A DNA stretch of 64,000 bases from an uncultured Gammaproteobacteria bacterium (GTDB lineage Bacteria > Pseudomonadota > Gammaproteobacteria > UBA9214). Within the stretch, counting starts at the first letter, position 1; each line of letters opens with the position of its first letter. The stretch lies in assembly GCA_963827755.1 (NCBI GenBank), contig CAWHCQ010000011.1, forward strand, positions 128,001 through 192,000. Reading direction: 5' to 3'. The position numbers and the translations under genes are program-made. The notes under the pieces were generated by a model. That model did no database searches. It had not been told where the DNA came from and worked only from the letters and a program-made list of their open reading frames with translations. This document shows positions 16,953 to 53,020 of this stretch, piece by piece.

Positions 16953-18962
16953 ATGTTTTTTCCCGGCAGACGGGGTGTTGCAGTCTTACTGCTTGCCTTG
17001 AGCCTGCTTGCGTTGGGCACACTGCGCGGCCTGGCCTACGACTCGGTTGGTTTGAAGCTGGGAACGCTCGAAGGCCCCGGGATGGCGGCGCGCAACGTGG
17101 CTGTTCAGCTTGGCTGGCTGGATGAAACGCATGCGCGCCTGCAGCTGAGCGCGGATTCGGCCAGCCTGGATGCCGTGCCCGGCAAGTTGTCCGGGCTGGA
17201 CCTGTCATGCCGCCGGGCACTGCTGAAGCCCGCCCACATACACTGCCCCGATGCCCGTCTCAGGCTGAACTCCAGCGTGTATGGCCGGCAGTCTCTGCAG
17301 GCCTCCTTTCATTACTATCCCGTTGAGGGGAAATGGGATGTGAAAGTTCAGGGCGCACGTCTGCCGCTGCAGCAGCTCACGGCCCGGCTGGCGGCAAGCG
17401 GCGCGGCGGTGCCGAAACTGGAGAGCGATGCCGTCATCGTGGTCAATGCCAGCCTGCAGGGCACAGGCGTGCAGCTGAGCAAGGCGGCACTGGACCTGCG
17501 CCTGCAGGCGCAGGCGTTCACCGATGCAAAGGGTACGGTCGCCGGCGAGGACCTGGACATCGCGCTTGGCGTCGAGGCAACACCGGGTAAGGCAGGCTGG
17601 CAACTGGCGCTGGATCTGACCGGGCACAAGGGCGCCCTGTATATCGACCCGCTCTACCTGGCGGTGCCGGCCGAACCGATTCGCGTCACCGCCCGGCTGG
17701 ACTGGCAGGACAAGGCTAATCGTTTGCTGGTGCATGCGTTCGATTACCAGCACCCGGGCAGCATCGAGGTGCAGGGCAAGGGACGTTTTTCCCTTGGCCC
17801 GGTCTTCAAGGCCGAGTCGCTGCAGCTCGATATCCGCGAAGCCGTGTTCCCGTCGCTCTACGATACCTATATGAAACCCTGGCTGACCGGCTCGGCGCTG
17901 GGCAACCTGCAGACGTCCGGCCGGGCCAGTGGCGGAGTAATGCTGCAGGACAATGCGCTGCAAGACCTGAGGCTGGATTTGCAGGCGTTGACACTGGAAG
18001 ACCGCGAGGGCCTGTTCGGGCTGGAAAAGGTGCAGGCCATGATTCGCTGGTCGGACTCCGCTGCGGCCGAGCCGTCCACGGTCTCGTGGGCGGGCGGTCA
18101 TGTCTACCGGGTTACTCTTGGTCCTGCCAGCATCGCCGCGGAGGCCGGTGCCGACTACGTGCGTCTGCAGGAAGCAACGCATATCCCGGTGCTCGATGGC
18201 GCCCTGCAGATCGACTCATTTGATCTTGCCTACGGTGCGGGTGAGCCGCTGCGCTGGCAGGTGGATGGTTTCATGACCCCGGTGTCCATGAAGCTGCTGA
18301 CCGTGGCGCTCGGCTGGCCGGAATTTTCCGGCAAGCTTTCGGGTGTCATTCCGAATGTACGTTACACAGGCGGGAACCTGGAAGTCGGCGGGGTCTTGCT
18401 GGTGCGTGTCTTCGAGGGCGAGGTGACCCTGCGCAACCTGCGCCTCGAGCAGCCCTTCGGGGTGGTGCCGCGGCTGTGGGTGGATGCAAAGGCGCAGAAT
18501 ATCGACCTGGAAACACTGACCGGTACCTTTTCGTTCGGCAAGATCGAAGGGACCCTGGACGGTCGGATCGACGGCCTGCAGATGGAGTCGTGGCGGCCGG
18601 CGGCCTTCGATGCGGAGTTTGCCACGCCGCCAGGGGATGCCAGGCGCCACCGCATCAGCCAGAAGGCCGTCGATAATATCTCCAATATCGGCGGGGGCGG
18701 GGTCGGTGGCGCCCTGTCGCGCAGCTTTCTGCGTTACTTCGAGGACTTTCCCTACGACCGGCTGGGTATTCGCTGCCGGCTCGAGAACGGCATCTGTGCC
18801 ATGGGCGGGGTGGAGCCGGCCGAGAACGGTTATTACCTGGTCAAGGGGCGGTTCATCCCGCCGCGACTGGATGTCATCGGCTTTGCCGACCGGGTGAACT
18901 GGACCAGCCTGGTTTCGCAAATCGTGGCGGTCACCGGGAAACAGGATGTCGTCGTCCAATAG
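16953..18962 (+). CDS. YdbH-like (AsmA/TamB-related) envelope protein
   Basis: N-terminal TM or signal, long beta-rich body, C-terminal ISQKAVDNISNIGG...FPYDRLG; followed by a ynbE/ydbL-like gene. Confidence 0.65.
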   Translation: MFFPGRRGVAVLLLALSLLALGTLRGLAYDSVGLKLGTLEGPGMAARNVAVQLGWLDETHARLQLSADSASLDAVPGKLSGLDLSCRRALLKPAHIHCPDARLRLNSSVYGRQSLQASFHYYPVEGKWDVKVQGARLPLQQLTARLAASGAAVPKLESDAVIVVNASLQGTGVQLSKAALDLRLQAQAFTDAKGTVAGEDLDIALGVEATPGKAGWQLALDLTGHKGALYIDPLYLAVPAEPIRVTARLDWQDKANRLLVHAFDYQHPGSIEVQGKGRFSLGPVFKAESLQLDIREAVFPSLYDTYMKPWLTGSALGNLQTSGRASGGVMLQDNALQDLRLDLQALTLEDREGLFGLEKVQAMIRWSDSAAAEPSTVSWAGGHVYRVTLGPASIAAEAGADYVRLQEATHIPVLDGALQIDSFDLAYGAGEPLRWQVDGFMTPVSMKLLTVALGWPEFSGKLSGVIPNVRYTGGNLEVGGVLLVRVFEGEVTLRNLRLEQPFGVVPRLWVDAKAQNIDLETLTGTFSFGKIEGTLDGRIDGLQMESWRPAAFDAEFATPPGDARRHRISQKAVDNISNIGGGGVGGALSRSFLRYFEDFPYDRLGIRCRLENGICAMGGVEPAENGYYLVKGRFIPPRLDVIGFADRVNWTSLVSQIVAVTGKQDVVVQ

Positions 18963-33900: not shown

Positions 33901-35481
33901 ATGAGCAGTTACGAATACGAAGTGGCGCGCCGCCGCACCTTTGCCATTATTTCCCACCCGGATGCGGGCAAGACCACCCTGACTGAAAAGCTGCTGCTGT
34001 TTGGCGGCGCCATTCAACTGGCCGGTACCGTCAAGGGTCGCAAGGCCGCACGCCATGCAACATCTGACTGGATGGAACTGGAGAAGCAGCGTGGCATCTC
34101 GGTGACTTCATCGGTCATGCAGTTTCCCTATGGTGACAACATCGTCAACCTGCTGGATACGCCTGGCCACGAGGACTTCTCCGAGGACACCTACCGGACG
34201 CTGACGGCGGTTGACTCGGCCCTGATGGTGATCGATTGTGCCAAGGGTGTCGAGCAACGCACCATCAAGCTGATGGATGTCTGCCGCCTGCGTGATACCC
34301 CGATCTGCACATTTATCAACAAGCTTGACCGCGAGGGACGTGAGCCCATCGAGCTGCTGGACGAGATCGAGGAGATTCTCAAGATCGAGTGTGCGCCGGT
34401 TACCTGGCCAGTCGGGATGGGCAAGCGTCTAAGAGGTATTTATCACCTGCAGGATGATGCGGTGCACCTGTACGCGCCGGGGAAGAACAATCAGCGCCAG
34501 GATGTGAAAGTCATCCAGGGCCTGGACAACCCCTTGCTCGACGAGGTGATCGGTGACCATGCGGCAGAACTGCGCGATGAGATCGAACTCGTAAAAGGGG
34601 CCAGTCACGGGTTCGACCGGGAGGCCTACCTGAAAGGCCGGTTAACGCCGGTATTCTTCGGCTCTGCAATCAATAATTTCGGTGTAACCGAGTTGCTGGA
34701 TCACTTCGTGGCAACAGCACCCTCACCGGTAGCGCGAGCAACGATGACGCGAACCGTGAGCCCGAAAGAGGAGAATTTTTCGGGATTCGTTTTCAAGATA
34801 CAGGCCAACATGGACCCGGCGCACCGTGACCGTATTGCCTTCCTGCGGATTTGCTCGGGGACTTACAGCAAGGGCATGAAGATGCGCCACGTGCGTATCG
34901 GGCGCGATGTGCAGGTTTCCAATGCCGTGACCTTCATGGCCTCCGACCGCGGGCATGTTGATGAAGCATACAGCGGCGACATAATCGGCCTGCATAATCA
35001 TGGCACCATCCGTATCGGTGATACCTTTACGCAGGGAGAGGACCTTAAATTTACCGGGATACCGAGTTTTGCCCCGGAACTGTTTCAGCGCGCGATCCTG
35101 AAAGACCCCTTGCGGATGAAGGCGTTGCAGAAAGGGCTGGACCAGTTATGTGAAGAAGGGGCTACCCAGCTATTCAAGCCAATGAAAAACAATGACCTGA
35201 TCCTGGGTGCGGTGGGCGTCCTGCAGTTTGATGTGGTCGCGCACCGCCTGAAAAATGAGTATAAGGTGGAGTGCCAGTTCGAGTCGGTGGCGGTTGCAAC
35301 CGCGCGCTGGGTTGAATTCGAGGATGCGGCGACCGAACAGCGCTTTCGCGACAAGGCCTTTGAATACCTTGGAGAGGACCAGAGCGGTGCACTGGTCTAT
35401 ATCGCACCCACACGCGTCAACCTGCAGCTTGCGATAGAGAAATGGCCGGATGTGAAATTTCACGCGACCAGGGAGCATTAG
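33901..35481 (+). CDS. prfC: Peptide chain release factor 3
   Basis: [30 protein letters not shown]. Confidence 0.98.
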
Positions 35482-35548: not shown

Positions 35549-36016
35549 TTAAAATTCTATCCAGGTAATGATGTGATCTTCCAGCTCTTCCTTGAGAACA
35601 TCTGTTTCGCTCACGGTTCTGCCGTGTACGGAAATACCGGCCCGACGCACACTCTCCGGGTCGCCTGATAACAAGGGGTGCCATGCCTCCAGCTGCTGGC
35701 CGTTTGCCAGGCGTCGATAGGCGCAGCTCGCTGGCAGCCAGTCGAACTGCTCCTGCCTGTCGGGGGACAACAGCATGCAATCGCTGACCAGGGACTCGCG
35801 CTCCGGGTAATTCGTACAGTGGCACGAATTCTCATCCAGCAGGCGGCAGGCAACATTTGTATAAAACAACAACCCTGAATCAATATCTTCCAGCTTGTGC
35901 AGGCAGCAGCGGCCGCAGCCATCACAGAGCGACTCCCATTCTCCCGGGGTCATCTCCTGCAGTGATTTTGTATTCCAAAATGTCCGGGCTTCTGTAACCA
36001 TGGGCAAGGTGTCCAT
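35549..36016 (-). CDS. YcgN family cysteine cluster protein
   Basis: WESLCDGCGRCCL, WLPASCAYR, WHPL.SG. Confidence 0.92.
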   Translation of the reverse strand: MDTLPMVTEARTFWNTKSLQEMTPGEWESLCDGCGRCCLHKLEDIDSGLLFYTNVACRLLDENSCHCTNYPERESLVSDCMLLSPDRQEQFDWLPASCAYRRLANGQQLEAWHPLLSGDPESVRRAGISVHGRTVSETDVLKEELEDHIITWIEF

Positions 36017-36072
36017 TCCTGTTGCTGATGATTATCCATGAAAAGCACTCTCTTTGGCGAACAAGGTCGACC

Positions 36073-37329
36073 ATGAGCCTGGAGCGGCAGAAATGGGGCT
36101 GGGCGATGTATGACTGGGCCAACTCGGCCTTCGCCACCACGGTAATGGCCGGTTTTTTCCCGGTATTTTTTAAAGACTACTGGAATGCAGGACTGGATCC
36201 GGTAGACAGCACTTTTCGACTGGGTATCGCCAATTCCCTCGCCAGCCTGCTGATCGTGCTGCTGGCGCCGCTGCTGGGGGCCGTGGCAGACAGGCTCGCC
36301 TGGCGCAAGGCCATGTTGCTGGCATTTGCATTGCTGGGTTCGCTGATGACTGCGGGGCTGTACCTGGTCGGACAGGGAGACTGGCAGCTGGCCATGTTTC
36401 TTTATATTTTCGCCGTCATCGGTTTCTCGGGCAGTAATATTTTCTATGATTCCCTGTTGCCGTTTGTCAGCCGCGAAAAGGACATGGACAGGGTCTCCGC
36501 ACTGGGGTTTTCACTCGGCTACCTTGGTGGTGGCGTGCTGCTTTCATTGAACGTTGGCATGACCCTGCATCCGGAATGGTTCGGCCTGTCAAGTTCAGTC
36601 AGCGCGGTGCAATGTTCATTTCTTGTTGTCGCTGCCTGGTGGCTGGTGTTTTCCATCCCCCTGTTCCTGTTTGTCGAGGAACCGGATGGCATCCGATCGA
36701 ACTTTTCCGTGCAGGTGTTGCTGGCAGGATTCCGGCGTGTCTGGCAGACACTGCACGAGGTCAGGCAGTTACGAAACGTATGGATGTTCCTGGTGGCCTA
36801 CTGGCTGTATATCGACGGCGTCGATACCATTGTCCGCATGGCGGTTGATTACGGAATGTCACTTGGATTTGACAGAAACAGCCTGATTCTTGCGTTACTG
36901 CTGACGCAATTTACGGGTTTTCCCTCGGCCTTGCTGTTTGGCAGGCTGGGCGGCCATTTCGGGGCAAGAGCCGGCATCCTGTTCGGCCTGTCCATTTATG
37001 TACTGGTAACGGTGTGGGCATCACGCATGTCGACAACCGCAGAATTCTATTACCTGGCAGTCATCATCGGATTTGCACAGGGCGGTGTTCAGGCGCTGAG
37101 CCGGTCACTGTATGCGCGCATGATTCCTGCGGGACGCAGTGCAGAATTCTTCGGTTTTTATAATATGCTCGGCAAGTTTGCCGCAATTATCGGTCCTTTT
37201 ATGGTGGGCTGGGTCGGCGCGCTGTCCGGTAATCCACGTACCGGTATTTTATCCTTGCTGCTCTTGTTCGTGGCCGGTGCGGCCTTGCTGCTGAAGGTCA
37301 GGGAGTCTGGCCCTGCCCGGTCCGTATGA
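36073..37329 (+). CDS. MFS transporter (UMF1/ATG22-like)
   Basis: WAMYDWANSAF, GYLGGG, QALSRS; about 12 TM helices. Confidence 0.88.
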   Translation: MSLERQKWGWAMYDWANSAFATTVMAGFFPVFFKDYWNAGLDPVDSTFRLGIANSLASLLIVLLAPLLGAVADRLAWRKAMLLAFALLGSLMTAGLYLVGQGDWQLAMFLYIFAVIGFSGSNIFYDSLLPFVSREKDMDRVSALGFSLGYLGGGVLLSLNVGMTLHPEWFGLSSSVSAVQCSFLVVAAWWLVFSIPLFLFVEEPDGIRSNFSVQVLLAGFRRVWQTLHEVRQLRNVWMFLVAYWLYIDGVDTIVRMAVDYGMSLGFDRNSLILALLLTQFTGFPSALLFGRLGGHFGARAGILFGLSIYVLVTVWASRMSTTAEFYYLAVIIGFAQGGVQALSRSLYARMIPAGRSAEFFGFYNMLGKFAAIIGPFMVGWVGALSGNPRTGILSLLLLFVAGAALLLKVRESGPARSV

Positions 37330-37518
37330 TTGTCATTCACCGCAGCCAGGCAGACGGGCGGCATCGGTTGCCGGTTTTGCAGGGCGGAACCCTGTTTTTA
37401 TGCGCTGAAAATACAGTATGTGTTATTTCATCGGCTGTCTGGATACAACATACTGTGTTCGGAGGCGTCCTGGATGTGTTCCAGGAAATTTTATAACCGA
37501 CTGAATTTTAGTAATTAT

Positions 37519-37547
37519 TTGAATATGTATAATAAAAACAATATAAT
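37519..37547 (+). promoter_or_regulatory. Sigma-70-like promoter upstream of rpfF, in a very AT-rich stretch
   Basis: TTGAAT-17 bp-TATAAT; GAGGAG RBS before ATG 37599. Confidence 0.55.
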
Positions 37548-37598
37548 ATCTGTGCTAATTATTAAACCAATTATAAATCGACCCGAGGAGTTCGTGTC

Positions 37599-38499
37599 AT
37601 GCATGATTATGTCGACCTGTTGCAACGACGTCTGCAGCATCTCAAGGTAAGTCACGATGCCTCCTCGAGAGCGATATGGGTCGAATTCAAATACGATAAC
37701 CGTCCCTGTTTTTCCACTGAATTGCTCGAGGACGTCTGGACCGTGCAGCGTTCCATCCGCCAGGCCGCCCTGTCCGGCTATCATGAAAATCGTGATGACA
37801 GGCTTCTCTTTCAGGTAATCGCTTCTACCGACAAAAACGTATTCAGTATGGGGGGTGACCTGGCTTACTTTATCGGGCTGATCGAGGCGAATGATGAAGA
37901 AGGTCTCAGGGACTATGCGAAACGTTGTATCGACATTCAGTACGCCACTATAAGTCATTACGATATACCGTTTACAAGCATTGCATGCGTGGGCGGGGAA
38001 GCCCTGGGCGGTGGATTCGAGGCCGCGTTATCAGCCAATGTGCTGGTTGCCGAGCAGCAGGCACGCTTCGGTTTCCCGGAGATTACATTTGGCATGTTCC
38101 CCGGGATGGGCGCTTTATCGCTGCTGACACGAAAGATCAACCCGTCAATGGCGCGCCGGCTTAGTCATGGACCATCGTATCTACACAGCTGCAGAATTAT
38201 ATGAAATGGGTGTGGTCGATATCCTGGCAGCGGAAGATGAAGGGCGAGCCGCTGTCAATGACTATATGCAACGCCACATATCGCTGGCCCCCGGATACCA
38301 CGGTTTCCAGGCGGCGATTGACCGGGTTAACCCGGTTAATTATGAAGAAATGTGTGACGTTGTCGGGCTTTGGGTGCAGGCTGCGTTACAGACTACCGAA
38401 AAGAACCGGCGCCTGATGGCCTACTTTGCCCGCGCCCAGGCAAGACGAAGTATCAGTTCTGAAAATATGGCTGAAGTCGTTGATTATAATTCAGCCTGA
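37599..38499 (+). CDS. rpfF: DSF synthase RpfF (crotonase superfamily); apparent +1 indel near 38163 splits it into ORFs 37599-38204 and 38167-38499
   Basis: RPCFS, FSMGGDL, ALGGGFEAALS and GFPEITFGMFPGMGA (both catalytic Glu present), then IYTAAELYEMGVVD; convergent with an RpfC-type kinase. Confidence 0.9.
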
Positions 38500-38514
38500 T
38501 CAATAAATGATTTG

Positions 38515-41100
38515 TCAGTTGAGCGCGGCCCTTTTCTCAAATGCAGTTAGCTTGATCTGAAGCAGCTGGACAGCGTCATCTGTTGCGCGACTGATGGCCT
38601 GCGCATGTGTAATACCTTTACTGTCAAATTCATCAGCACCAATGTTCTGTGCAACCTTGCTGAGATATGCGAGCCGGGTTAGCCCAAGGTAAAGTGCACA
38701 TCCCTTGAGGGCATGAGCATGATCGCTGAACGCAGTCCGGTTATGAGCAGCTAAAGCGGATTCAAGGCCCTCGAGATCATTTCTTGCATCGGTTTCGAAA
38801 TTCCTGATCAGTTCGATAACGAAATCATAATTTCCTTCTGTAAGGTTCACGAGTTTTTCAAACTCCTCAGCATCCAGAACCGGAAATGATTCCAGGTCAG
38901 GGTCCGGCTGCGTTTCCTGCGGTTTCGCTTCGGTGGAAAACACGGCATCTGTATCATCAGTATGTAAGGATGCGAAGGTCTCCTGGAGCTTGAACAGTGA
39001 TACAGGCTTGGTAAGGAACAGGTCAATTCCAGCGGCCTCGCAAGTCGCCCTGCATTCTTCAGTAGCATCTGCTGTAAGGATGATGAATGGAATGGGCGGA
39101 TGACCGCCATGCGCAAAACAGTAGGCCTGGTAGGCTTCAATTCCTCCAAGATCCGGCATATTCTTGTCGACGATTACTGCATCGTACGCGCTGTCCTCAA
39201 GTGCGGTAAGGATTGCTTCACCACCATCTACGATGGTGTACTGGTGCCCGAGTTTGTCGAGCATACGCTGCAATACAAGCCGGTTGGTCGCGCTGTCGTC
39301 GCCAACAAGAATACGTAAGGGTCTGCCTGATTTCTGTTCAATGACCTGTTGGTGTGAGAAGTGAATCACATCGTCCTCCTTGCTGTGCCTCGAATAACAG
39401 GCATGTAGTACATTGATAAGAATATTTCCCTCCAGTGGTGGCTCCAGGACGAAAACCTGGTCCTGATTATTTTCATTGATGTTGACTGGATACTGCTCTG
39501 TCCCGATGAGGATTATTTTCACCCCGTCGGGGATGCTCGTATCCTCACCAGAGAGTATTCCCGCGAGTTTCTGCTCATACGGCATACTGTCTATTATCAG
39601 GGCTGTATGGTTGCCCTGAGTGAATAGCAGCCGGCCTGCCTGATCGAAAGTTGTTGCCAGATCACAGGGCATGTTCCATTCTTTCAGGCTGGCGGGGATG
39701 CTGTCCTCTGCATCTGCCTGCGGGTTTAGATACACTACCCGGCATCGGCTGGTCCATGCCTGACCGTTCACGGCCGCAGCCCGGGTGTTGGCCGCAAACG
39801 GGATATCGAACCAGAAGGTAGAACCCACACCCGGGGTACTCTGTACACCGATTTGTCCGCCCATCAATTCGACAAGGTTCTTGCAGATGGTCGTGCCCAG
39901 CCCGGTGCCGCCATAATTTCTCGATACGCTGCTATCGGCCTGGGTGAATGGTTCAAAGATCGCCTGGATCCGGTCTGCAGGTATGCCCGTGCCTGTATCG
40001 GCAACCTCGAATCTCAATACGGTCTGACCGGTGTCAATATCGCGTGGATATATACGTATGGAGATGATTCCCTGTGCGGTAAACTTGATAGCGTTTCCGA
40101 CTAAATTGATAATGATTTGCTGGAGTTTATCCGGGTCACCGGTTAGCAGAAAGGGCGTTCGCGGGTCAATTATTTCCTGCAGTTGCAGGCGTTTCCCCTC
40201 TATCTGGGGCTGAAAAATTCGCATGGTTGTGTTGATCAGGGCATAAAGATCAAATTCAATTTGTTCCAGTGTTAATTGACCGGCCTCGATTTTTGACAGG
40301 TCGAGAATCTCGTTAATCTGCCGTGCGAGAGCATGACCGGAAGCATAAATGGTGTCAACATATTCCCTGTCTTCAGGTTCCAGCGGTCTTAATTTCAGCA
40401 AGTCTGTCATGCCAAGAATGCCGTTAAGCGGGGTACGGATTTCGTGTGACATACAGGAAAGAAAATCACTCTTCGCGCGGCTTGCGTCATCTGCGCGCTG
40501 CCGGGCTTCGTAGAGTCGTCGGATCAAGACGGCGGAATAGGCCGGGATCAACAGTAAAGTACATGCTAGGCCAATTGCCAATTCTTGCGTGGGTCGTCCA
40601 GTAAGGGGTGAATTTTGCAACAAATGCAAAACCTAGAAGTGATACAGAGGCAGACAGATAAAGATATTTCTCGCCGTAGCGGAACCCATTGCCGAGTGTT
40701 ACCCAAAGGTAAACACCAAACCATGGTGCGCCCATATGGTCCAGTTACATAAAGTCCATAACTTAATAGCCCCAATATCTCACAAGATACCTAATAATTC
40801 GTCTTGAGGAGGATGGCATATTGCCAGATATGCTAGAGAAGATGTGAGATAATAATAGTGCAAAATCAGGAATGATCAGGATAAACCAATATTCCTTTTG
40901 ACCAATAGTTCAGATACCTGCGTTATCCTCATGGTTTAATTATCAAATAAATAGATCATGAAAGCGATAGGGTATAGCGAGTACGTAGTACTGCTTGTTC
41001 TTGCTCAGGAGATCCTGTCCAGCCAATCAGATCTTAGGCACATCTTGAGCTTATGCAATGAGTCTTTGCTTGGAGAATTTTGTGCCTGGGCTGTAGTCAT
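38515..41100 (-). CDS. rpfC: RpfC-type DSF sensor hybrid histidine kinase (TM-HisKA-HATPase-REC-HPt); several indels between ~40590 and 41040
   Basis: Pieces across frames from ATG 41100: [27 protein letters not shown]; then [68 protein letters not shown]. Confidence 0.88.
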
Positions 41101-41186
41101 TGCTCTTTTTTAACCTGCACTGGAAGGTATTCCTGTTAACAAGACGGATAACGGCAGCGCAGGTATAATGCTTTAAGCGTCATTCT

Positions 41187-41444
41187 GTGGAGAATAATTG
41201 CTTGTTGCAAGATACTGTAATTAAAGAAATATCTTCTCATCTCAAGTGCCGGCCTGGAGATATCACGCTGGACATGCGCCTGGACGAATTGGGGATCGAT
41301 TCACTGGGGGCTATTACTATCATGTACGAACTGGAAGACCGGCTGGATGTTGAAATTCCCAATGAAGTCTTTGATAAACTCACAATAGTCAATGACATTG
41401 TGAATCAACTGGAACTCCTGCTGGGAAATAGAAATTCGGAATGA
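41187..41444 (+). CDS. Acyl carrier protein (NodF-like); the start may be TTG 41202
   Basis: LGIDSLG phosphopantetheine site; its stop overlaps the ketosynthase ATG (ATGA). Confidence 0.9.
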   Translation: MENNCLLQDTVIKEISSHLKCRPGDITLDMRLDELGIDSLGAITIMYELEDRLDVEIPNEVFDKLTIVNDIVNQLELLLGNRNSE

Positions 41445-42662
41445 CAGGCCGGGTTGTCATTACAGGCCTTGGCAGCGTCTGCGGACTGGGTGTCGGTGTT
41501 GCGGCTTTCTGGGATGCTCTCTGCCGGGGACATACATCCATCGGGCCGCTGACAGGATTTGCGGACGATGTAAAGATTCAAACCGGTTCTCGACTGGAGG
41601 GTTTCCAGCCGGAGCAATACTTCCCGCGGGATGTACTGCCACTCCTTGATCGTTTCTCGCAGTTCGCACTATTGGCGGCACGGGAGGCTGTCGAGGATGC
41701 CGGGCTTGCTGCAGGCAGTGAAGATCCTGAGGCAGGCGGCCGCCATTATCGGGACGGGTTGTGGCGGAAAGCAGACGGATGAAGAAACTTATACAAAGCT
41801 CTACAAGGAGCAGGGCAAGCGTGTCCACCCGCTGACCATTCCCAGGGGTATGCCCAGTGCAGCAGCCAGCATGGTCAGCCAGCAGATTGGCATCAAGGGC
41901 CCGGTCTTTTCGGTTACCAGTGCATGTGCGTCTGGCGCCCATGCAATCATCCAGGGCCGCATGATGATTCAGTCGGGGCTGGTGGATATTGCCCTGGTCG
42001 GGGGGACCGATGCCCCTTTCACCTATGGTCTGTTGAAGGCCTGGGAAGCCTTGCGGGTCGTGTCGAATGATACCTGCCGTCCATTTTCAAGCGACCGGTC
42101 CGGCATGGTGCTGGGAGAAGGCGCCGGGATGCTGATCCTGGAGTCTGAACGGCATGCAAGCCGGCGTGGTGCGCGTATTTATGCCGAATTTGCCGGTTGT
42201 GGCATGTCATCTGATGCAGGTCATATTACCCGTCCGGATATAGACGGTATTTCCAGGGCGATAACAGCTGCCCTTGAAGATGCCGCATTGCCCACAGAAT
42301 CGGTGGATTACATTAATGCACATGGTACGGGTACGGTTGCCAACGATCTGGCTGAAACGCAGGCGATAAACAGGGTATTTGGCAGGCATGCCGGCGCCCT
42401 GGCGGTTTCTTCAACCAAGTCGATGCATGGGCATGCGCTTGGGGCAGCCAGTGCGCTGGAACTGGTTGCCACAACCCTGGCGGTGGTAAACAACAGGATA
42501 CCGCCTACGGCAAATTTTACAGGGCCCGGGGAGGGATGTGATCTGGATTATGTGCCCAACCTGGCACGAGAGAAACAGGTTGATGTTGCCCTGTCCAATG
42601 CATTTGCCTTCGGTGGATTGAATGCCGTCATAGCATTGAAATCCTGGGTGCCCGGTGGTTAA
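41441..42662 (+). CDS. Beta-ketoacyl-ACP synthase, FabF family, NodE-like; apparent +1 indel near 41723
   Basis: RVVITGLG, DRFSQFA, TSACAS (Cys), NAHGTGT (His), STKSMHGH (His), SNAFAFGG. Confidence 0.9.
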
Positions 42663-43743
42663 TTAGCCAGGTTTTCTAAACAGGTAGTGGCTGTTACCGT
42701 AGACTGTGCCTTCCATGGGCGCGAAGACGGCCTTGCAGAGTGAAAAGTATTCATTCCAGTGGGCGATTGCCCTGGTATCAAAGACCGATTTGTACAGGGA
42801 AGGGATGTTGTTCCAGTAGCGCCTGTGCCATTCATCCAGTGTCCGCCAGTAATTAAGTCCATTTATAAACCAGTTTCCTTCCAGGTCGAGAATGGTCTGT
42901 ATGACGAAAGAATTCGGCATGAGGCCAGACTCTTCCACCAGGGAAATATATACCAATTCTTGTCTTAGTTGGGTCTAGAAATTGTGGGATGACAATCTTT
43001 GAGGTAATAAAATGATTGAATGATCTGCCGCCTGGAATGAGTAGTTTACTTATCTTTTCATGTATCAGAGCTGCATGTTGTATACATGCTCAAATACTGC
43101 AACTGGATATTACAAGATCGATAGTTTAGATTTCCCAAGCTTCATTAAAGGTAGTTTGTTCGAAAGTACCTTCTATTAATTTAAATTTCCCACTACCTAG
43201 AATAGTCTGACGGATTTTGCAATCGTTCTGTCTCAGGTATGCGATTTGTACAGTGCTTGGGGTAATGCCAACAATCTCAAGATCGGGAAATTCCTCTAAA
43301 AGATAGGTCTCGAGAGACCCAAACCCACAGCCAATGTTGAGAATGCGCTCATGGCCTTCTATTCTTGCGCGTTTTGCAATCAGCGCGAACTTGGCCCGTT
43401 GTGCTTCTTCCAGTGATGCGCTGGAGGAGCGAATTATCTCAGGGGATTCACCATAGTAGGCCATTGAATAGGCCATGTATCGCGTATCAAGAAAGCTTGC
43501 AAAGAATTCCGGCCGCTCATCATAGTGGCTGTCCATCAGGGCTTCTGTTTCTTCCATCATCGGGCCCTGGTCTGTTGATATGCCCAATGATTGGAGAGTA
43601 ACAGGGTTATCTGAAAGGCGCCTGTATTCACGCTCGAAGTAGCGGACCAGATGGTCTTCATGCCTGGCAAGTTCATCGCTACCCGGGCCAAAAATATTCT
43701 TGCTGGCGAGCAGGTCGCTGATTTCTTTATCGAGAATTGCCAT
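42663..43743 (-). CDS. SAM-dependent methyltransferase, cyclopropane-fatty-acid synthase (CMAS) family; several indels between ~42900 and 43200
   Basis: HYD...FF..FLD.RYMAYSMAYY, SLEEAQRAK, ILNIGCGFGSL; shifted frames give AVFEH, LIPGG, YFPGG, NYWRTLDEW, WNEYFSLC. Confidence 0.82.
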
Positions 43744-43861
43744 CAGATATTCGGATTACTGATCCTGTTGCAGGATATCGCTCGTGGAATGTGAGCGAGT
43801 GTAACCCATAATTTGCAAACTGGCAGCAGCCAGGATCAGGGGGGTAAGAGTCGTATGGACC

Positions 43862-44920
43862 TTATCGACTGTGTGCCAGTGGCTTGTCCGGCAGCATGCC
43901 GTGTATTTTTGTTATCTTGTCGAGTTGGGTTTTGAAGGCCGTAAAACATTCCGGATCAAAGTGCTTGCCGCTGTGGTTTTCCATGTATTCAAGCGCGGCT
44001 TGCATGGACCAGGCATTTTTATAAGGGCGATCAGATACCAGTGCATCATAGACGTCGGCGACGGCCACGATGCGTGCCTCAATCGGGATATCTTTACCTT
44101 TTTTGCCGTAAGGGTAGCCGGTGCCGTCGAATTTTTCATGATGCCCGAGTGCGATAATGCCGCCCAGCTGCAGGTACTTTGAAGGACTGTCCTTCAGAAT
44201 CTCATACCCGATTGTGGTGTGATTCTTCATTATCTCGAATTCTTCAGCCGTCAGTTTACCGGGTTTGAGCAGGATACCGTCCCTGATGCCAATCTTGCCG
44301 ATGTCGTGCATGGGTGCTGACATTTCAATGATTTCTGCATCCGCCTCGGAGAATCCCATTTGTTCTGCTATGAGACGTGAATACTTCGCCATGCGAATAA
44401 TGTGATTGCCTGTTTCCTCGTCCCGATATTCTCCGGCCCTCGCCAGCCGCAGCAGGGTTTCACGTTCGCGTAATCTGATTTCACTGGTAGCCTCGGCAAC
44501 ACGTCGTTCAAGCCAGCGGGAGCGGTCGCTGATAATCTTGTATTGCTGCGACTGGGTCAGCAGGTTGCGGCAGCGTGCGCGGCATTCATAGTGGTCAACC
44601 GGTTTCATCAGGAAGTCGGTGGCCCCGGCCTCCAGCGCATCGTAACGCACTTTTATGTCTTCAATGGAAGTCACCATGATGACAGGGATATGAGCGCAGG
44701 CCGGGTTGCTACGGAACTTCCTGATAAATTCAACGCCATTCATTTCCGGCATCTTGTAATCCACCAGCACCAGGTCGGCGGCTCTTTTTACCGTCCATTC
44801 GAGCGCCTCTACCGGGTTCGCAAACGCCTCTGTAACGAGGTTTCGCTCAAGCGTACTGACCAGCTGTTGCAGGATTTTGCGGCTGGTAAGCTGGTCATCA
44901 ATGATCAGAATTGTCGCCAT
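43862..44920 (-). CDS. rpfG: RpfG-type response regulator (REC + HD-GYP c-di-GMP phosphodiesterase)
   Basis: IIDDQLTSR, VDYKMP, EYRDEETGNH, MHDIGKIG, HHEKFDGTGYP, VADVYDAL..RPYK. Confidence 0.9.
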   Translation of the reverse strand: MATILIIDDQLTSRKILQQLVSTLERNLVTEAFANPVEALEWTVKRAADLVLVDYKMPEMNGVEFIRKFRSNPACAHIPVIMVTSIEDIKVRYDALEAGATDFLMKPVDHYECRARCRNLLTQSQQYKIISDRSRWLERRVAEATSEIRLRERETLLRLARAGEYRDEETGNHIIRMAKYSRLIAEQMGFSEADAEIIEMSAPMHDIGKIGIRDGILLKPGKLTAEEFEIMKNHTTIGYEILKDSPSKYLQLGGIIALGHHEKFDGTGYPYGKKGKDIPIEARIVAVADVYDALVSDRPYKNAWSMQAALEYMENHSGKHFDPECFTAFKTQLDKITKIHGMLPDKPLAHSR

Positions 44921-45246
44921 ACGAATTCACAAGTACCTGTCAAAATCCACGATAAATGCCTTCAAGGCCGCCCGTCTTGTCCCGGGTGCCCGGCCCGCAA
45001 ACCAGAATAATGTCATAACTATATGATGTAATATATGAAACATATTCTGTTACCCGACAAAACATGCTATCGGCAGAAGCGCATATATATTGAGTCTTGA
45101 TACCGGGCTTGATTCCGGGCCGGTTACCGTTCCCTTGAAATCTCAACCGCCCGGTTAACTGGTCAAATTACCCTGTGCAGCCGGCCATCCTTGCAGCAGA
45201 ACGCATGCCCGGTAGAATGTCGCCGAAAAGAGCCCGGGAATAGAGT

Positions 45247-45471
45247 ATGGTTGATGATCGCAAGAATGAGCCAAAAGTGCCTTCGTTTCTGGACGTGCTG
45301 GGAAGCGTCCTGGCGAGTATGTTCGGTGTGCAAAGTAATCGTAAGCGTGAAGAAGACTTCACCCACGGGAAGCCTTCGCAGTACATCGTCATCGGCTTGA
45401 TCGTGACGATAGTTTTTATTTTGACAATCTGGGGGGTGGTCAAGCTGGTGATGAAGCTGGCGGGTATCTAG
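45247..45471 (+). CDS. DUF2970-type small membrane protein
   Basis: SVLASMFGVQS..RE.DF and a TM helix. Confidence 0.82.
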   Translation: MVDDRKNEPKVPSFLDVLGSVLASMFGVQSNRKREEDFTHGKPSQYIVIGLIVTIVFILTIWGVVKLVMKLAGI

Positions 45472-45549
45472 TTGCGGTGTGCCGGGAAGTCACCACCTGA
45501 CAGACGGTCATATCTGAACCACCGTCCTTCATTAATAATGCAGTAAAGG

Positions 45550-48315
45550 TCAAAGCGCCTGGATCTTTTCTTTTTGTCCTTCCAGGTTATTGATGACCGA
45601 GCCAAGTTCGGTCGCACGTGCACGTTCCTTTTCGACGACATCGGCCGGGGCCTTGTCTACAAAGCCCGGGTTGAGAAGTTTTTTCTCGCAGCGGCCCAGT
45701 TCATTTATCTTCTTCTCGAGTTCTTTAGTCAGTCGCAGGATCTCGCTGTCCTTGTCGATCAGGCCTGCAAGCGGAATCAGCAGTTTCATATCGCCGACCA
45801 GCGCGGTGGAAGACTCCGGTGCTGTTTTATTTACATCCAGCCAGGTAACGGATTCAATACGGCCGACACTCTCGAGGTAACGCCGGTTTCTGTCGAGCCG
45901 TTGCCTGTCTGTTGCAGAGCCATCCTGCAGCAGTACGGGTAACAACTTGCGGGGGTCGATATTCATGCCGCTGCGAATCTTGCGCACTCCTATAATGAAA
46001 TCCTTCACCCAGTTGATTTCCGCAAGCGCATTCCGGTCGATCTTGCCGGTGTCGGGTGCCGGGTAGGGCTGGCGCATGATGGTTTTTCCCGCAACACCGG
46101 CAAGCGGTGCCATGCGTTGCCAGATCTCCTCGCTGATGAAGGGGGTCAACGGGTGGATCAGTCTTAAAACGGTCTCCATTACCACGACCAGGGTTCTGCG
46201 TGTGCCACGCAGTGCCCCGGCGTCACCGTCAGGGTCCGTCAGCACCGGTTTCGATAGCTCCAGGTACCAGTCGCAGTATTCGTCCCAGATAAAGGTGTAA
46301 ATGGCCTGTGCTGCAAGGTCAAAGCGGTAGTTTTCGATGGCCTCGATGACTTCCTGTTCGGTCTGCTGCAGCAGGCTGATTATCCATCGATCGGCATCAT
46401 TCAGCAGCACCTCGCTGCCGTCCTGGCCGCAGTCCTGGCCCTCGGTATTCATCAGCACATAGCGGGCGGCGTTCCACAGCTTGTTGCAGAAGTTGCGGTA
46501 GCCCTCGATCCGTCCCAGGTCGAAGTTGATGTCACGGCCGGTGGAGGCGAGGGCGGCAAAGGTAAAACGCAAGGCATCGGTACCGAATGCCGGTATGCCG
46601 TCCGGAAAGTCCTTGCGGGTCATCTTGTCGATCCTGTCCGCCATCTTCGGCTGCATCAGGCCGGCGCGGCGCTTGGCAACCAGTGCCTCCAGCTCGATGC
46701 CATCGATCAGGTCGATCGGGTCGAGTACATTGCCCTTGGACTTGGACATTTTCTGGCCGTGTGCATCGCGCACCAGCCCGTGAATATAAACCTCCCGAAA
46801 CGGGACTTCACCGGTGAACTTGAGCCCCATCATGATCATGCGGGCGACCCAGAAGAAAATTATGTCAAAACCGGTGACCAGTACGCTGGTCGGGTAGAAG
46901 GTGTTCAGTTCTTCGGTCTTTTCCGGCCAGCCCAGCGTGCTGAAAGGCCAGAGCGCGGATGAGAACCAGGTATCGAGTACGTCTTCATCCTGGTGCAGGG
47001 CGAGTTCATCATCCAGGCCGTGTTTTTCACGCGCTTCTTTCTCGCTGCGCCCGACGTAGATATTGCCGGCCTCGTCATACCAGGCCGGTATCCGGTGTCC
47101 CCACCAGATCTGGCGCGAGATGCACCAGTCCTGGATATTGCGCATCCATTCGAAATAGGTGTTCTTCCAGTTGTCCGGCACGAATTTGATGCGCCCGTCC
47201 TCGACCGCCCTGATGGCCGGTTCCGCCAGCGGTGCGATCTTCACAAACCACTGGTCGGTCAGGAACGGCTCAACCACGGCGCCGGAGCGGTCGCCGCGCG
47301 GCACCATCAGTTTGTGGTCCTCGACCTTCTCCAGCAGTCCCGCAGCCTCGAGGTCGGCGACGATCTGCCTGCGCGCCTCGTAACGATCCATGCCGCCGTA
47401 CCGGCCGGGGGCCTCGTCATTGATGCAGGCATCGATGGTGAGAATATTGATCACCGGCAGGTCGTGACGCTTGCCCATTTCGTCGTCATTGAAATCATGG
47501 GCCGGCGTGATTTTCACGCAGCCGGTGCCGAATTCCGGGTCGACATAGTCATCGGCGATGACGGGAATGTCACGGTCCGTCAGCGGCAGGCGAATGTGCT
47601 TGCCGATCATCGACTGATAGCGCTCGTCGTCGGGATGCACGGCGACCGCCGTGTCGCCGAGCATGGTCTCGGGCCGCGTCGTGGCGACGACGAGACTGCC
47701 GGAGCCGTCTGCCAGCGGATAGCGCATGTGCCAGAGATGGCCATCTTCCTCTTCGGAAACCACCTCGAGATCGGATACCGCGGTGTGCAGCACCGGGTCC
47801 CAGTTCACCAGGCGCTTGCCGCGGTAGATCAGGCCTTCTTCATAGAGGCGGACAAAGGTCTCCCTGACGGCCTGTGACAGGCCCTCGTCCATGGTGAAGC
47901 GCTCACGGCTCCAGTCCACGGATGAACCCATGCGCCGCAGCTGGCGGGTAATGGTCCCGCCGGATTCATGTTTCCACTCCCAGATGCGCTTGATGAATTT
48001 CTCGCGGCCGAGATCATGCCGGGTCAGGCTGTCGCTGTTGAGCTGGCGTTCGACCACCATCTGCGTCGCGATGCCCGCATGGTCGGTGCCGGGCTGCCAC
48101 AGGGTGTTGTCGCCGCGCATGCGGTGGTAGCGGGTCAGCGCGTCCATCAGGGTGTCCTGAAAGGCGTGCCCCATGTGCAGGCTGCCGGTTACATTCGGCG
48201 GCGGAATCATGATGCAGTAGGGCGCACCTTCACCGGAAGGCGCAAAATGTCCTTCCCGCTCCCAGGTTTCGTACCATTGCTGTTCTATGGCGTGCGGATT
48301 GTAGGTCTTTTCCAT
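45550..48315 (-). CDS. valS: Valine--tRNA ligase
   Basis: [25 protein letters not shown]. Confidence 0.98.
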
Positions 48316-48411
48316 GGCTGGCGTTATTCAGTCAAGCGGGACCCGGGCGAGGCCAGGGCGATGGATTATACCTGAAGGAAGTGTTTTTTCAGGGTTGCCC
48401 CCGACTACCGT

Positions 48412-48788
48412 TTATTCAGGGCTGTCGCCGGACACCTGCAGGGCCTCGGCAACCATGTCGGGCAGGGCGGATTCAAGCTGCTGACGAACGGCTTCAGACG
48501 ATATCGCATCACTGTCATTCAGTGCCATGCCAATGGCCTGTTCGAGGACGGGTTGTAATGCCTGCTCCATTTGCTGGCAGACGCTGCGGGTAAGTGTGGC
48601 GGCGACTTCCTCGATCTGTTTTCGGAACGACTCATTACCCAGCAGTTCATCGGCAATCTCCCGGGGCGCCATGTCCGATGCCCGCCTGGCGAGGCGCATG
48701 TCCGGCGGCTCCGGTTCATAATCGTCGCGCACGATGTCCGTCAGTATCGGGATACCTTCTTCGTCGAGAGACAGTTCTTCAGCGTTTT

Positions 48789-48792
<4 letters not shown>
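48412..48792 (-). CDS. Hypothetical protein between holC and valS
   Basis: IPILTDIV motif, helical; overlaps the holC stop. Confidence 0.65.
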
Positions 48793-50702
<1,910 letters not shown>

Positions 50703-50862
50703 GCAGCGTCCCTTTATGTGATGATGGTTGTGATTGCAGTTCGCGGGCCTTGTGTTATACGGTAGTCGCGTTCCTGATCGATGCCTGCCAGCAGCGTTAA
50801 TATATCAGGGAAGTGTACTGGAAGCAGGCATGATTTTCATGCTGCCAATCGGGCCCATCCGG

Positions 50863-51962
50863 ATGATCCGTGTTTTTGATCGTTACCTGCTAAGAGAAGT
50901 GATTCACGGCTGGCTGGTCGTGACCGTCATCCTCTGGCTGATTCTTGTCAGTAATCGACTGGTGCAGTACCTGGGTGATGCAGCAGCCGGTGAGATACCG
51001 GGTAACGTGGTGTTTAAACTGCTGGGTCTGAAGATGGTCTGGTACCTGGTGCACGTGGTCCCGTTCGCCCTGGCGCTGGGCGTGATTATCGGGCTGGGCC
51101 GCATGTATCGCGATAATGAAATGACCGTGATGGCGGCCTGCGGGGTCGGGCCCGGACAGATCTACAAGCCACTGCTGACACTCGGCGTCGTCGTCGCTGT
51201 TCTGCTTGGCTGGCTGTCGCTCTATGCCGGACCAGCCGTCGAGGGTATGAGTCTGCAGGTAAGGGCATGAAGCAGAACAGCAGGCAGATCTTACGGTGCT
51301 GGGCGCGGGTCGCTTCAATGCCATACAGGGTGGCCGCCTGACGTTTTATGCCGAACGACTCTCAAAGGACAAGCAGCAGATGGAGAACCTGTTTATTGTT
51401 GTCAGCGGCCATGCTGGCGACGAAACTGCCCTGCAGCTATTAAGGGCAGAGTCTGCCTACCGAAAACGGGATACAGCAAGCGGTGATGATTTCCTGGTGC
51501 TGGTCGATGGTTACCGTTACGAAGGCACGCCCGGCATGAAAAACTACCGGATTATGAAGTTCGGGGAATACGGTGTACGTATTGATTTGCCGGGCGTGCA
51601 GAGAGTCTCCTCGAAGCTGGTTGCGACGCCAACCGCACTGCTGCTTGGTTCGGCTGATCCTGAAAAGCGTGCCGAGCTGCAATGGCGTCTCGCCATGCCG
51701 TCTGTCGGTCATGGTGTTGCTGTTTCTCTCGGTGCCGCTGTGCAAATCCTCGCCGCGACAGGGTCGTTATGGCCGCCTGGTGATGGCCATCCTGCTGTTC
51801 GTGGTCTATTACAACCTGCTGGGCGCCGCAAAGGTGTGGGTTGAGCAGGGCGACGTGCCGGCCTCTATCGGCCTGTGGTGGGTGCCGCTATTGACCGTAA
51901 TCCTGGCCCTGGTCCTGCTCAACAGTGACCGGCTGGCCGGCCGCTTCGGGCGTTCTGCATGA
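50863..51962 (+). CDS. lptF: LPS export permease LptF; apparent indels near 51268 and 51700
   Basis: DRYLLRE, GRMYRDNEM..M.ACG, ELQWRLA, PRQGRYG spread over three frames; divergent from pepA. Confidence 0.92.
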
Positions 51963-53020
51963 AGATCCTGGACCGCTACATTGCAGTGGCGATTGCTGCA
52001 GGCACGGGGATTGCGCTGCTGGTCATCGTTGGCCTGGATGTTTTCTTTAACATCATCGGCCAGCTGGACAAGGTTGGCGTGGGTACCTACAGCCTCTGGA
52101 AGATGTTCCTGTTTGTCGCGCTGACGACACCGAAAAGCATCTACGAGATGTTCCCGATGGCCGCGTTGCTTGGCAGCCTGATCGGCATGGGTATGCTGGC
52201 AGCCAGCAGTGAGCTGATTGCCATGCGGGCAAGCGGCATCCCGGTCTGGCGCATTGTGCGATCGGTGCTGCAGGCCGGCGTGCTGATGCTGGTTGTGGTC
52301 GTCATGGTTGGTGAGCTGGTCGCACCACCGGCGGAACACTACGGACAAAAATTGCGCGCTGCCGCCACCAACAAGGCGGCGAGCTTCCTCGGCACCCTGG
52401 GCCTGTGGGTGCGTGATGGCAACTATTACATCAATGTAAAGAAGATCCTCAGCGACGAAAACCTGGCCGGTCTCACGATCTACGAGTTCGAGGACGATTC
52501 CAGTCTGTCCGTGATCACGACATCTGCGCAGGCGCAGGTTGAAAACGATGTATGGCAGCTGATCGATGTCGAGCAGACACGGTTCGATGATAACCAGGTG
52601 GTAGTGCAGCACTATGATCAGCTGGAGCGGCAGACGCTGGTATCACCCGAGTTGCTCAGCGTCGTCGTGATGAAGCCGCAGACCATGTCGGTTGTCGCTA
52701 TTTCCCAGCTGGTTGATTACCTCGAGGAGAATGGTCTTGATGCACAACAGTACCGTTACGCCTTCTGGGGGCGCCTGATGACCCCGTTTGCCTCGCTGGT
52801 CATGCTGCTGGTATCCGTGCCCTTCGTCTTCGGCGGCTTGCGTTCCGTGCCCACGGGACAGCGTATTTTTATCGGCATTCTTGTCGGCTTCGGGTTTTAC
52901 GTGGTCACCCAGATTTCCAGCCAGATGGGGCAGGTATACGGGATCAACCCGCTACTCGCCACGCTGGTGCCAGGTCTTTTGTTCATGTTGCTCGGTATTC
53001 GTGCAATTCAAAAGATCTGA
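51959..53020 (+). CDS. lptG: LPS export permease LptG
   Basis: MKILDRYI, SELIAMRASG, FVFGGLR. Confidence 0.95.
   Translation: MKILDRYIAVAIAAGTGIALLVIVGLDVFFNIIGQLDKVGVGTYSLWKMFLFVALTTPKSIYEMFPMAALLGSLIGMGMLAASSELIAMRASGIPVWRIVRSVLQAGVLMLVVVVMVGELVAPPAEHYGQKLRAAATNKAASFLGTLGLWVRDGNYYINVKKILSDENLAGLTIYEFEDDSSLSVITTSAQAQVENDVWQLIDVEQTRFDDNQVVVQHYDQLERQTLVSPELLSVVVMKPQTMSVVAISQLVDYLEENGLDAQQYRYAFWGRLMTPFASLVMLLVSVPFVFGGLRSVPTGQRIFIGILVGFGFYVVTQISSQMGQVYGINPLLATLVPGLLFMLLGIRAIQKI

Follow-up and report, generated by a model that had tools for sequence, protein, structure and literature searches.

The systems closest to the locus reported here are the Rpf systems for diffusible signal factor (DSF) of Xanthomonas and Burkholderia and the NodF/NodE pair of rhizobia. 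DSF signals are thought to be skimmed straight from bulk fatty-acid synthesis. In the parts of the review PMC4504480 that deal with RpfF, these enzymes are described as dehydrating a 3-hydroxyacyl-acyl carrier protein (ACP) to the cis-2-enoyl form, which is then hydrolysed; two conserved glutamates are essential in RpfF, and a signal called CDSF is named. According to the relevant passages of PMC9542644 and PMC5080398, NodF and NodE make the unsaturated chains of Nod factors. The stretch studied here covers 64,000 nucleotides of an uncultured gammaproteobacterium of the UBA9214 lineage (assembly GCA_963827755.1, contig CAWHCQ010000011.1, positions 128,001 to 192,000, forward strand) and is called the window below. 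Between prfC (33901-35481) and valS (45550-48315) it carries an island in which rpf-like genes surround a dedicated ACP and a ketosynthase (KS) of the clade that contains NodE. We lean towards the view that the RpfF-like synthase receives a modified acyl chain from this private ACP-KS line, and that the cassette is part of a DSF-type (Rpf) signalling island.

The island resembles the Rpf systems of Xanthomonas and Burkholderia in its RpfF-like crotonase with two glutamates (structures 3m6m, 5fus and 6dgn), in its HisKA-HATPase-REC-Hpt kinase and in its REC-HD regulator. It differs from them in having its own ACP, KS and CMAS-like methyltransferase, and no rpfB was detected in the island by Pfam and NCBIfam scans of the window. 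Its layout of a small, dedicated ACP immediately followed by a KAS II-type KS is also that of NodF/NodE (in the rhizobial loci L098 and L102 to L105, nodF and nodE lie side by side), and both pairs would rely on housekeeping fatty-acid-synthesis enzymes for the remaining steps. The neighbour that takes the chain is different: an RpfF-like thioesterase/dehydratase here, the N-acyltransferase NodA in rhizobia. A literature search found no paper with rpf genes together with a private ACP-KS pair, and in the searched portion of a paper on DSF in Leptospirillum (PMC8357829) the terms ketoacyl, acyl carrier and cyclopropane did not appear. The new points are that a link to the NodE clade was tested, that a placement with FabF was rejected and that two locus forms exist within one genus. 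Genes were identified by Pfam and NCBIfam scans, and the island consists of:

35549..36016, minus strand: CxxCxxCC protein (Pfam PF03692), the island's first gene, adjoining prfC
36022..37329, plus strand: MFS/Atg22-like transporter, candidate exporter (Pfam PF11700, PF07690)
37599..38499, plus strand: RpfF-like crotonase (ECH) of the DSF-synthase family (NCBIfam PRK08788, in two pieces; frame broken near 38160)
38515..41027 (5' end approximate), minus strand: RpfC-like hybrid histidine kinase with HisKA, HATPase, REC and Hpt domains (Pfam), N-terminal sensor part frameshifted
41187..41444, plus strand: dedicated ACP of 85 residues (PP-binding domain PF00550, 1.7e-11)
41441..42662, plus strand: KAS II-type KS of the NodE-containing clade (Pfam PF00109, PF02801; frame broken at about 41723-41725)
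42663..43743, minus strand: CMAS-family (cyclopropane-synthase-like) S-adenosylmethionine (SAM) methyltransferase, convergent with the KS gene (PF02353 on the N-terminal piece)
43862..44920, minus strand: RpfG-like response regulator with REC and HD_5/HD domains (Pfam PF00072, PF13487, PF01966), the island's last gene, adjoining valS

The ketosynthase and the NodE-containing clade

The original prediction, made from the letters of the window, stated that the ACP-KS pair resembles NodF-NodE rather than the housekeeping AcpP-FabF. All the motifs that it quoted were found in the translations, namely GMPSAAA, GPVFSVTSACA, GGTDAPFTYGLLKAWEALRV, DTCRPFSSDR, NAHGTGTVAND, SSTKSMH, LGAASALE and SNAFAFGG in the KS and GDITLDMRLDELGIDSLG in the ACP. 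Its NodE and NodF strings were also close to actual sequences from rhizobial symbiosis plasmids, where NodE carries AMPSAAA and GPVFGVTSAC (S. meliloti) and NodF carries GEITTDTELTSLGIDSLG; the E. coli AcpP segment is LGADSLD. The KS is not a single open frame, a point that the original prediction missed: it begins in the frame of 41441-41782, which encodes residues 1 to about 95, and continues in that of 41631-42662.

The closest full-length KS homologue, P0002, is 91% identical to the C-terminal part of the window KS; full-length homologues have 402-407 residues, and the KS of locus L001 showed 70% identity. P0002 is about 51% identical to NodE, 41% to the genome's own FabF (contig C39) and 34% to the genome's FabB-like gene. 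Its best plasmid match was a KS of Xanthomonas sacchari (52.8%), followed by 39 Rhizobium records at 50.9-51.4% in which the gene adjoins nodF inside nod clusters. The identity of NodE to FabF-type and other non-rhizobial ketosynthases is 32-44%. The JGI label 'nodulation protein E', an automatic name, was found on 38 among the 120 KS homologues listed. As seen in the alignment, the KS and NodE have several features in common that are not those of FabF: MPSAAA replaces I(I/V)NM(I/V)AG, a DAP....LKAWEA.R motif is present, seven residues are deleted before DTCRPFS and two after HIT.P, and NAHGTGT stands where FabF has NAHGTST. The likeness to E. coli FabF lies in the same fold and in the Cys-His-His triad and Lys, all of them in place (TSACAS, NAHGTGT and STKSMHGH align with the E. 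coli residues) and presumably with the usual catalytic roles.

The phylogeny that had been proposed for this KS, with NodE, FabF, FabB and type II PKS sequences, was then computed from 66 rows. These included the C-terminal 312 residues of the window KS, 8 database homologues, 10 loci from related genomes, 15 rows from L001-L016 (L013, with a stop within its match, was excluded) and 20 of 22 every-third picks from L017-L080 (L041 and L080 were dropped for the same reason). The references were five NodE or NodE-like proteins, the X. sacchari KS, E. coli FabF and FabB, the genome's own FabF and FabB-like protein, and a type II PKS KS-alpha and CLF; aryl-polyene KS and rhizobial FabF1XL/FabF2XL lay outside the sample. 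In a quick posterior mean site frequency (PMSF) tree, the KS fell into a clade with a support of 100 (SH-like approximate likelihood ratio test, SH-aLRT) and a branch length of 0.39, with every FabF outside. This NodE-containing clade also includes a mixed proteobacterial group and an acidobacterial group. A careful LG+G4 tree (65 rows, the CLF row being removed) recovered the same clade at 100/99 and, within it, the window clade (15 sequences) and rhizobial NodE (5 sequences), each at 100/100. The order of the window clade, NodE and the third group was poorly supported (50/53 and 13/2 in the LG+G4 tree).

When the window clade was forced to group with the 26 FabF rows, the arrangement that the original prediction had named as refuting it, the log-likelihood cost was 111.8 and the approximately unbiased (AU) test rejected the topology (p-AU 0.00036). 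Forcing it to be sister to NodE cost 0.13 (p-AU 0.49). The original prediction was thus right that the KS is nearer to NodE than to housekeeping FabF, as indicated by the identities, the NodE-type indels and motifs, the fully supported clade and the AU rejection of a grouping with FabF. Judged from its sequence, the KS is related by descent to rhizobial NodE but is of a separate subfamily; in the trees it stands outside the NodE clade.

The simplest alternative, that the KS is merely a second housekeeping FabF, draws on its best NCBIfam and PDB sequence matches, all KAS II, and on the PRK07314 subfamily cut-off, which it passes with 405-406 bits vs 387. For the FabF equivalog TIGR03150 (cut-off 493.75 bits), however, P0002 (420.8), the G024 copy (420.7) and the X. 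sacchari KS (421) all score below the cut-off, as do two NodE proteins (432 and 428 bits), while E. coli FabF is above it (650.9). The genome moreover already possesses an acpP-fabF pair elsewhere (C39:44583-44810 and C39:44934-46151) and a FabB-like gene; the KS lies outside this fab cluster, has only limited identity to the genome's own FabF, falls in another clade and occurs in only 6 of the 37 genomes of the genus. We consider this alternative hardly credible.

The NodE-containing clade accounts for about 16 of the 80 genome loci and about 15 of the 80 metagenome loci listed in the P0002 scans. An ACP lies directly upstream of the KS in most clade loci examined, and the neighbours vary: LpxD-like genes in Alphaproteobacteria, FemAB/GNAT-like genes with aminotransferases in Lysobacterales, Methylobacterium and X. 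sacchari, and NodA in rhizobia. In three alphaproteobacterial metagenome-assembled genomes (MAGs; L003, L007 and L010), an LpxD-like hexapeptide acyltransferase gene is found just upstream of the clade KS; among these three, tblastn detected an ACP between the two genes only in L003, and a FabA-like dehydratase comes next in L007. These LpxD-like cassettes and the FemAB/GNAT plus class III aminotransferase cassettes (X. sacchari, Rudaea, Lysobacterales) belong to the same KS clade as the island but have another off-loading enzyme and no rpf genes nearby. The common theme of the clade is a private ACP-KS pair joined by a dedicated off-loading enzyme.

In L099 (X. sacchari NZ_CP010410.1, 441994-445750), L015, L016 and L005, the ACP-KS pair stands beside FemAB/GNAT-like acyltransferases. 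L099 and L016 add an arginase-family gene and a class III aminotransferase, L099 also a HAD phosphatase, and L005 a DegT-type aminotransferase. By their gene content, these loci have the look of an uncharacterised cluster for an acyl-amine lipid or metabolite.

The claim that the ACP, too, matches NodF better than AcpP was borne out only around the phosphopantetheine-attachment serine, which lies within LGIDSLG. The motif G[DE]IT.D..L..LGIDSLG is common to the ACP and NodF of R. leguminosarum bv. viciae and departs there from LGADSLD of AcpP. Overall, BLASTP scores showed no preference: five NodF or NodF-like proteins gave 29-37 bits, AcpP of E. coli and that of the genome itself 34-35 bits. 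The ACP scored below every NCBIfam ACP cut-off. Pfam scans revealed no nod genes in the window, in line with the absence of nodABC stated in the original prediction. NodA (PF02474) had no match in the window's genome G000, which is 91.8% complete, nor in 14 control genomes, while the rhizobial plasmid controls W01 and W02 matched at 1e-94 to 1e-98. The pair is not part of a nod system: nodA was not found in the genome.

Two forms of the prfC-valS locus

The block between prfC and valS has a G+C content of 0.49-0.52, as against 0.56-0.60 in its flanks. The stop of the ACP gene overlaps the start of the KS gene (ATGA), and an RpfC-type hybrid kinase and an RpfG-type REC-HD regulator are both present. 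The order prfC, CxxC, MFS, ECH, RpfC, ACP, KS, CMAS, RpfG, valS is complete in the related genomes G007 and G024 and partial in G019 and G025, whose contigs end at the KS or the ACP. A related order (ECH, RpfC, ACP, KS and following genes) was found in G032 and in a Chromatiales MAG (L002), and in the metagenome contig L113 the ACP, KS and CMAS genes are again adjacent, in another orientation. Among the 80 genome and 80 metagenome KS loci listed, the window clade was seen only in L001, L002, L112 and L113.

Within the genus, the window-clade KS occurs in G000, G007, G019, G024, G025 and G032, and a search of 24 other genomes of the class found no copy of it. An ECH at least 49% identical to the G024 copy is present in 7 of the 37 genomes, that is, in the same six and in G012, on a contig that breaks off just after rpfC. 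Another 19 genomes have an ECH that is less similar (33-46%), and 11 had no match at E 1e-30.

In G036 (L110, C7:135900-147800) and G023 (L111, C6:200800-212300), the distant ECH, here called ECH', occupies the same prfC-valS site, and its coordinates fall between prfC and valS in G002 and G017 as well. The order of this second form is CxxC, (MFS), ECH', RpfC', RpfG, with RpfC' directly abutting RpfG. No ACP, KS or CMAS gene was found in the second-form locus of G036 and G023, and the G+C content of the island is 0.37-0.44 (L110, L111). ECH' and RpfC' are only 34-37% identical to their first-form counterparts, whereas the genes at both ends are orthologous (CxxC 58-61%, RpfG 83%, MFS 70% in G036 and not matched in G023). 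Across relatives bearing either form, the transporter is about 67-70% and the RpfG-like regulator 82-89% identical; the CxxCxxCC gene keeps its position in L095, L096, L107, L110 and L111. Between the two forms, then, a change of synthase goes with a change of sensor and with the presence or absence of ACP-KS-CMAS. The strongest argument of this analysis for a role of ACP, KS and CMAS in shaping the signal is that they co-vary with the form of RpfF and RpfC.

The intact ECH of G007 matched the RpfF structures 7zq7 (3.9e-51), 3m6m (1.6e-45), 6dgn and 5fus. Aligned to Xcc RpfF, the glutamates of GGGFEA and FPE, which we take to be the catalytic pair, are kept in the G007 protein and in the window. 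The intact G024 ECH passed PRK08788 (307 bits vs a cut-off of 177) and failed the RpfF equivalog NF053515 (197 bits vs 550), in which the island departs from the Rpf systems of Xanthomonas and Burkholderia. The intact CMAS-like protein (353 residues) matched PF02353 at 103.7 bits. Against the cyclopropane-fatty-acid (CFA) synthase equivalog NF008686 it reached 87 bits vs a cut-off of 400; positions 112-358 of the 383 of the model were matched, the first 110 or so being missing. In the Chromatiales locus, the slot after the KS that the CMAS-like gene holds in the window is filled by a radical SAM gene (PF04055, L002:9206-10717), whose best NCBIfam matches, all far under their cut-offs, include B12-binding radical SAM methyltransferases.

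Two further observations were made in the course of these scans. At L109 (G055:C30, 4027-8346), an RpfG-like gene, a 403-residue open reading frame (ORF) without a Pfam match, an RpfF-like ECH and a private ACP (35% identical) occur with no KS of the clade nearby, and this locus may be a second arrangement in which RpfF has a carrier to itself. Among the housekeeping genes of the window, a 669-residue ORF (16953-18962, plus strand) has no Pfam match at E <=1e-5.

Broken reading frames

Several genes of the island are out of frame in the window copy. Compared with G019, the nearest relative with an intact KS gene (its KS is 81% identical to P0002), the KS gene has one extra base at about 41725. 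The ECH gene has one extra base at about 38160, and its two pieces lie in separate frames (PRK08788 profile positions 14-188 and 192-288). For the RpfC gene, tblastn with an intact relative of 859 residues covered 40992-38524, plus 41027-40962 in another frame, and stops occur in all frames upstream of 40629, at the sensor end. The CMAS-like gene is broken by several single-base insertions relative to G019 (at 42890 and within 43054-43227), and tblastn with the intact 353-residue relative matched two frames. Outside the island, pepA (49211-50702) is broken at about 50191-50197 and lptF (50734-51844) at 50857, 51268 and 51701. In total, at least 12 uncompensated single-base indels relative to G019 affect ECH, RpfC, KS, CMAS, pepA and lptF within about 14 kb (38160-51701). 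In the remaining genes of the window, the Pfam scan gave no sign of breaks of this kind.

Contigs of four public metagenome runs (X1, X2, X3 and X5), with pieces 94-99% identical to the window, were aligned over 37000-52500. At most 39% of the sampled words of the stretch occur in any one public run, so none of these runs is the source of the assembly. At the extra bases, the run contigs read as follows:

38160: base lacking in X1 and X5; covering runs not showing this, none
40587: base lacking in X2 and X5; covering run not showing this, X3
41723: base lacking in X5; covering run not showing this, X3 (one contig across, one unplaced gap)
43066, 43072, 43106, 43119 and 43125: bases lacking in X1 and X2; covering runs not showing this, none
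50191: base lacking in X3; covering run not showing this, X2
51701: base lacking in X1 and X3; covering runs not showing this, X2 and X5

The gene lptF is normally essential, and because it is hit in the same way the frameshifts are read as assembly errors, which is probably what they are. Alternatively, the frameshifts would be real and the island of this strain a set of decaying pseudogenes, as the breaks in ECH, RpfC, KS and CMAS could suggest. Decay of such genes would have parallels in relatives. The KS of G032 (L097, G032:C51, 7482-8611) is also split, into overlapping pieces that match query residues 3-273 and 291-403. The second-form ECH has four in-frame stops (one TGA, two TAG and one TAA) in G017:C16:90078-91061 and G018:C19:78594-79571, so that the RpfF-like gene of these two genomes is probably a pseudogene. 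The public runs compared, none of which is the source, leave decay in this strain some weight. Against it, the same type of single extra base breaks pepA and lptF outside the island, the damage is limited to single-base indels, and the bases tabulated above are lacking in contigs of related runs, though not in all covering runs at 40587, 41723, 50191 and 51701. We hold decay in this strain to be possible but doubtful. Whichever reading of the frameshifts holds, the family is intact elsewhere.

A proposed route to the signal and its alternatives

What was observed directly are the identities of the genes, the phylogeny of the KS, the conserved gene order and the co-variation of alleles; the chemical route proposed below is inferred in all its steps. 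Housekeeping FabD would load malonate onto the private ACP. The KS would condense this malonate with an acyl primer taken from fatty-acid synthesis, the last elongation or elongations taking place on the private ACP, and FabG would reduce the product to 3-hydroxyacyl-ACP. The RpfF-like crotonase could then dehydrate it to a cis-2-enoyl thioester and free the signal by hydrolysis, while the CMAS-like methyltransferase may put a methyl or cyclopropane mark on the chain. The co-varying RpfC-like kinase would sense that signal and relay it to RpfG. The private ACP may, like that of NodFE, serve to keep an alpha,beta-unsaturated chain away from bulk lipid synthesis.

Several points weigh against this route. 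CMAS-family enzymes usually modify phospholipid or mycolate chains rather than ACP-bound ones. The island has no FabG, FabZ or FabD gene, so that all trans-acting steps are assumed, and of the five genes concerned, four have broken frames in the window copy. Members of the KS clade occur in unrelated acyltransferase contexts, and the linkage seen here could reflect lipid tailoring. The co-occurrence counts are not independent events, because the genomes of the genus are related. The route is built on gene content and on the comparison of sequences. Finally, RpfF elsewhere acts on ordinary AcpP-bound intermediates without a private ACP, according to the portion of PMC4504480 on this enzyme.

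Two other uses of the cassette were weighed against the supply of a modified chain to RpfF. The ACP, KS and CMAS-like protein might tailor a membrane or envelope lipid and be only neighbours of the rpf genes, or be regulated by them, with no role in the signal. CMAS is a lipid-modifying family, and other members of the KS clade adjoin genes of lipid A type (LpxD-like) or aminoacyl-lipid type (FemAB/GNAT). The three genes, however, are present only in the form with a different RpfF and RpfC, where they are placed between rpfC and rpfG; the Pfam scan detected no acyltransferase in the island that could move a chain onto a lipid; and the CMAS-like protein falls far below the CFA-synthase cut-off and covers only part of that model. 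Lipid tailoring therefore appears unlikely to us.

The original prediction went further in another direction, proposing that a NodFE-like pair feeds a polyunsaturated acyl-ACP to RpfF. The feeding is supported by the synteny and by the co-variation with RpfF and RpfC, while nothing was found that indicates a polyunsaturated product. In its full version, the pair would make a conjugated (trans-2,4,6-type) acyl-ACP that RpfF turns into a polyunsaturated signal. The position of the KS in the NodE-containing clade and the tolerance of the AU test for a sister relation to NodE speak in its favour, and a doubly unsaturated member of the DSF family, CDSF, exists. NodFE themselves produce polyunsaturated acyl chains, as stated in the sections of PMC9542644 and PMC5080398 on these proteins. 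Rhizobial NodE nevertheless forms a fully supported clade of its own, and membership of the larger clade does not predict polyunsaturated chemistry, because other members adjoin LpxD-like or FemAB/GNAT-like acyltransferases. The need of RpfF for a 3-hydroxyacyl-ACP, as given in the passages of PMC4504480 on its reaction, is compatible with one elongation of the ordinary kind. Among the residues and genes examined, none points to a skipped enoyl reduction, and since nothing shows such a skip, a polyunsaturated product is only a minority possibility and, in our judgement, a distinctly improbable one.

The prfC-valS site may hold alternative 'signal dialects'. Tentatively, one allele would make an ordinary DSF-type acid, and the other, with ACP-KS and the methyltransferase, a distinct cis-2-enoic signal (methyl-branched, cyclopropanated or more unsaturated) to which a co-diverged RpfC responds. 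A signalling locus equipped with a carrier, an elongating enzyme and a methyltransferase of its own would imply signals of undescribed structure, made in a way that insulates them from the synthesis of membrane lipids. With both forms present in a single genus, the locus offers a natural experiment on the joint divergence of a signal and its receptor. More widely, as the ancestry in common with NodFE shows, one small ACP-KS cassette has been re-used with various off-loaders, namely NodA, LpxD-like and FemAB-like acyltransferases and an RpfF-like thioesterase, and this re-use provides a rule for interpreting many unannotated 'FabF family' genes. Should the dialects prove true, they would represent a pherotype-like polymorphism for fatty-acid signals, and the tailoring of Nod factors and of DSF would come from one portable cassette.

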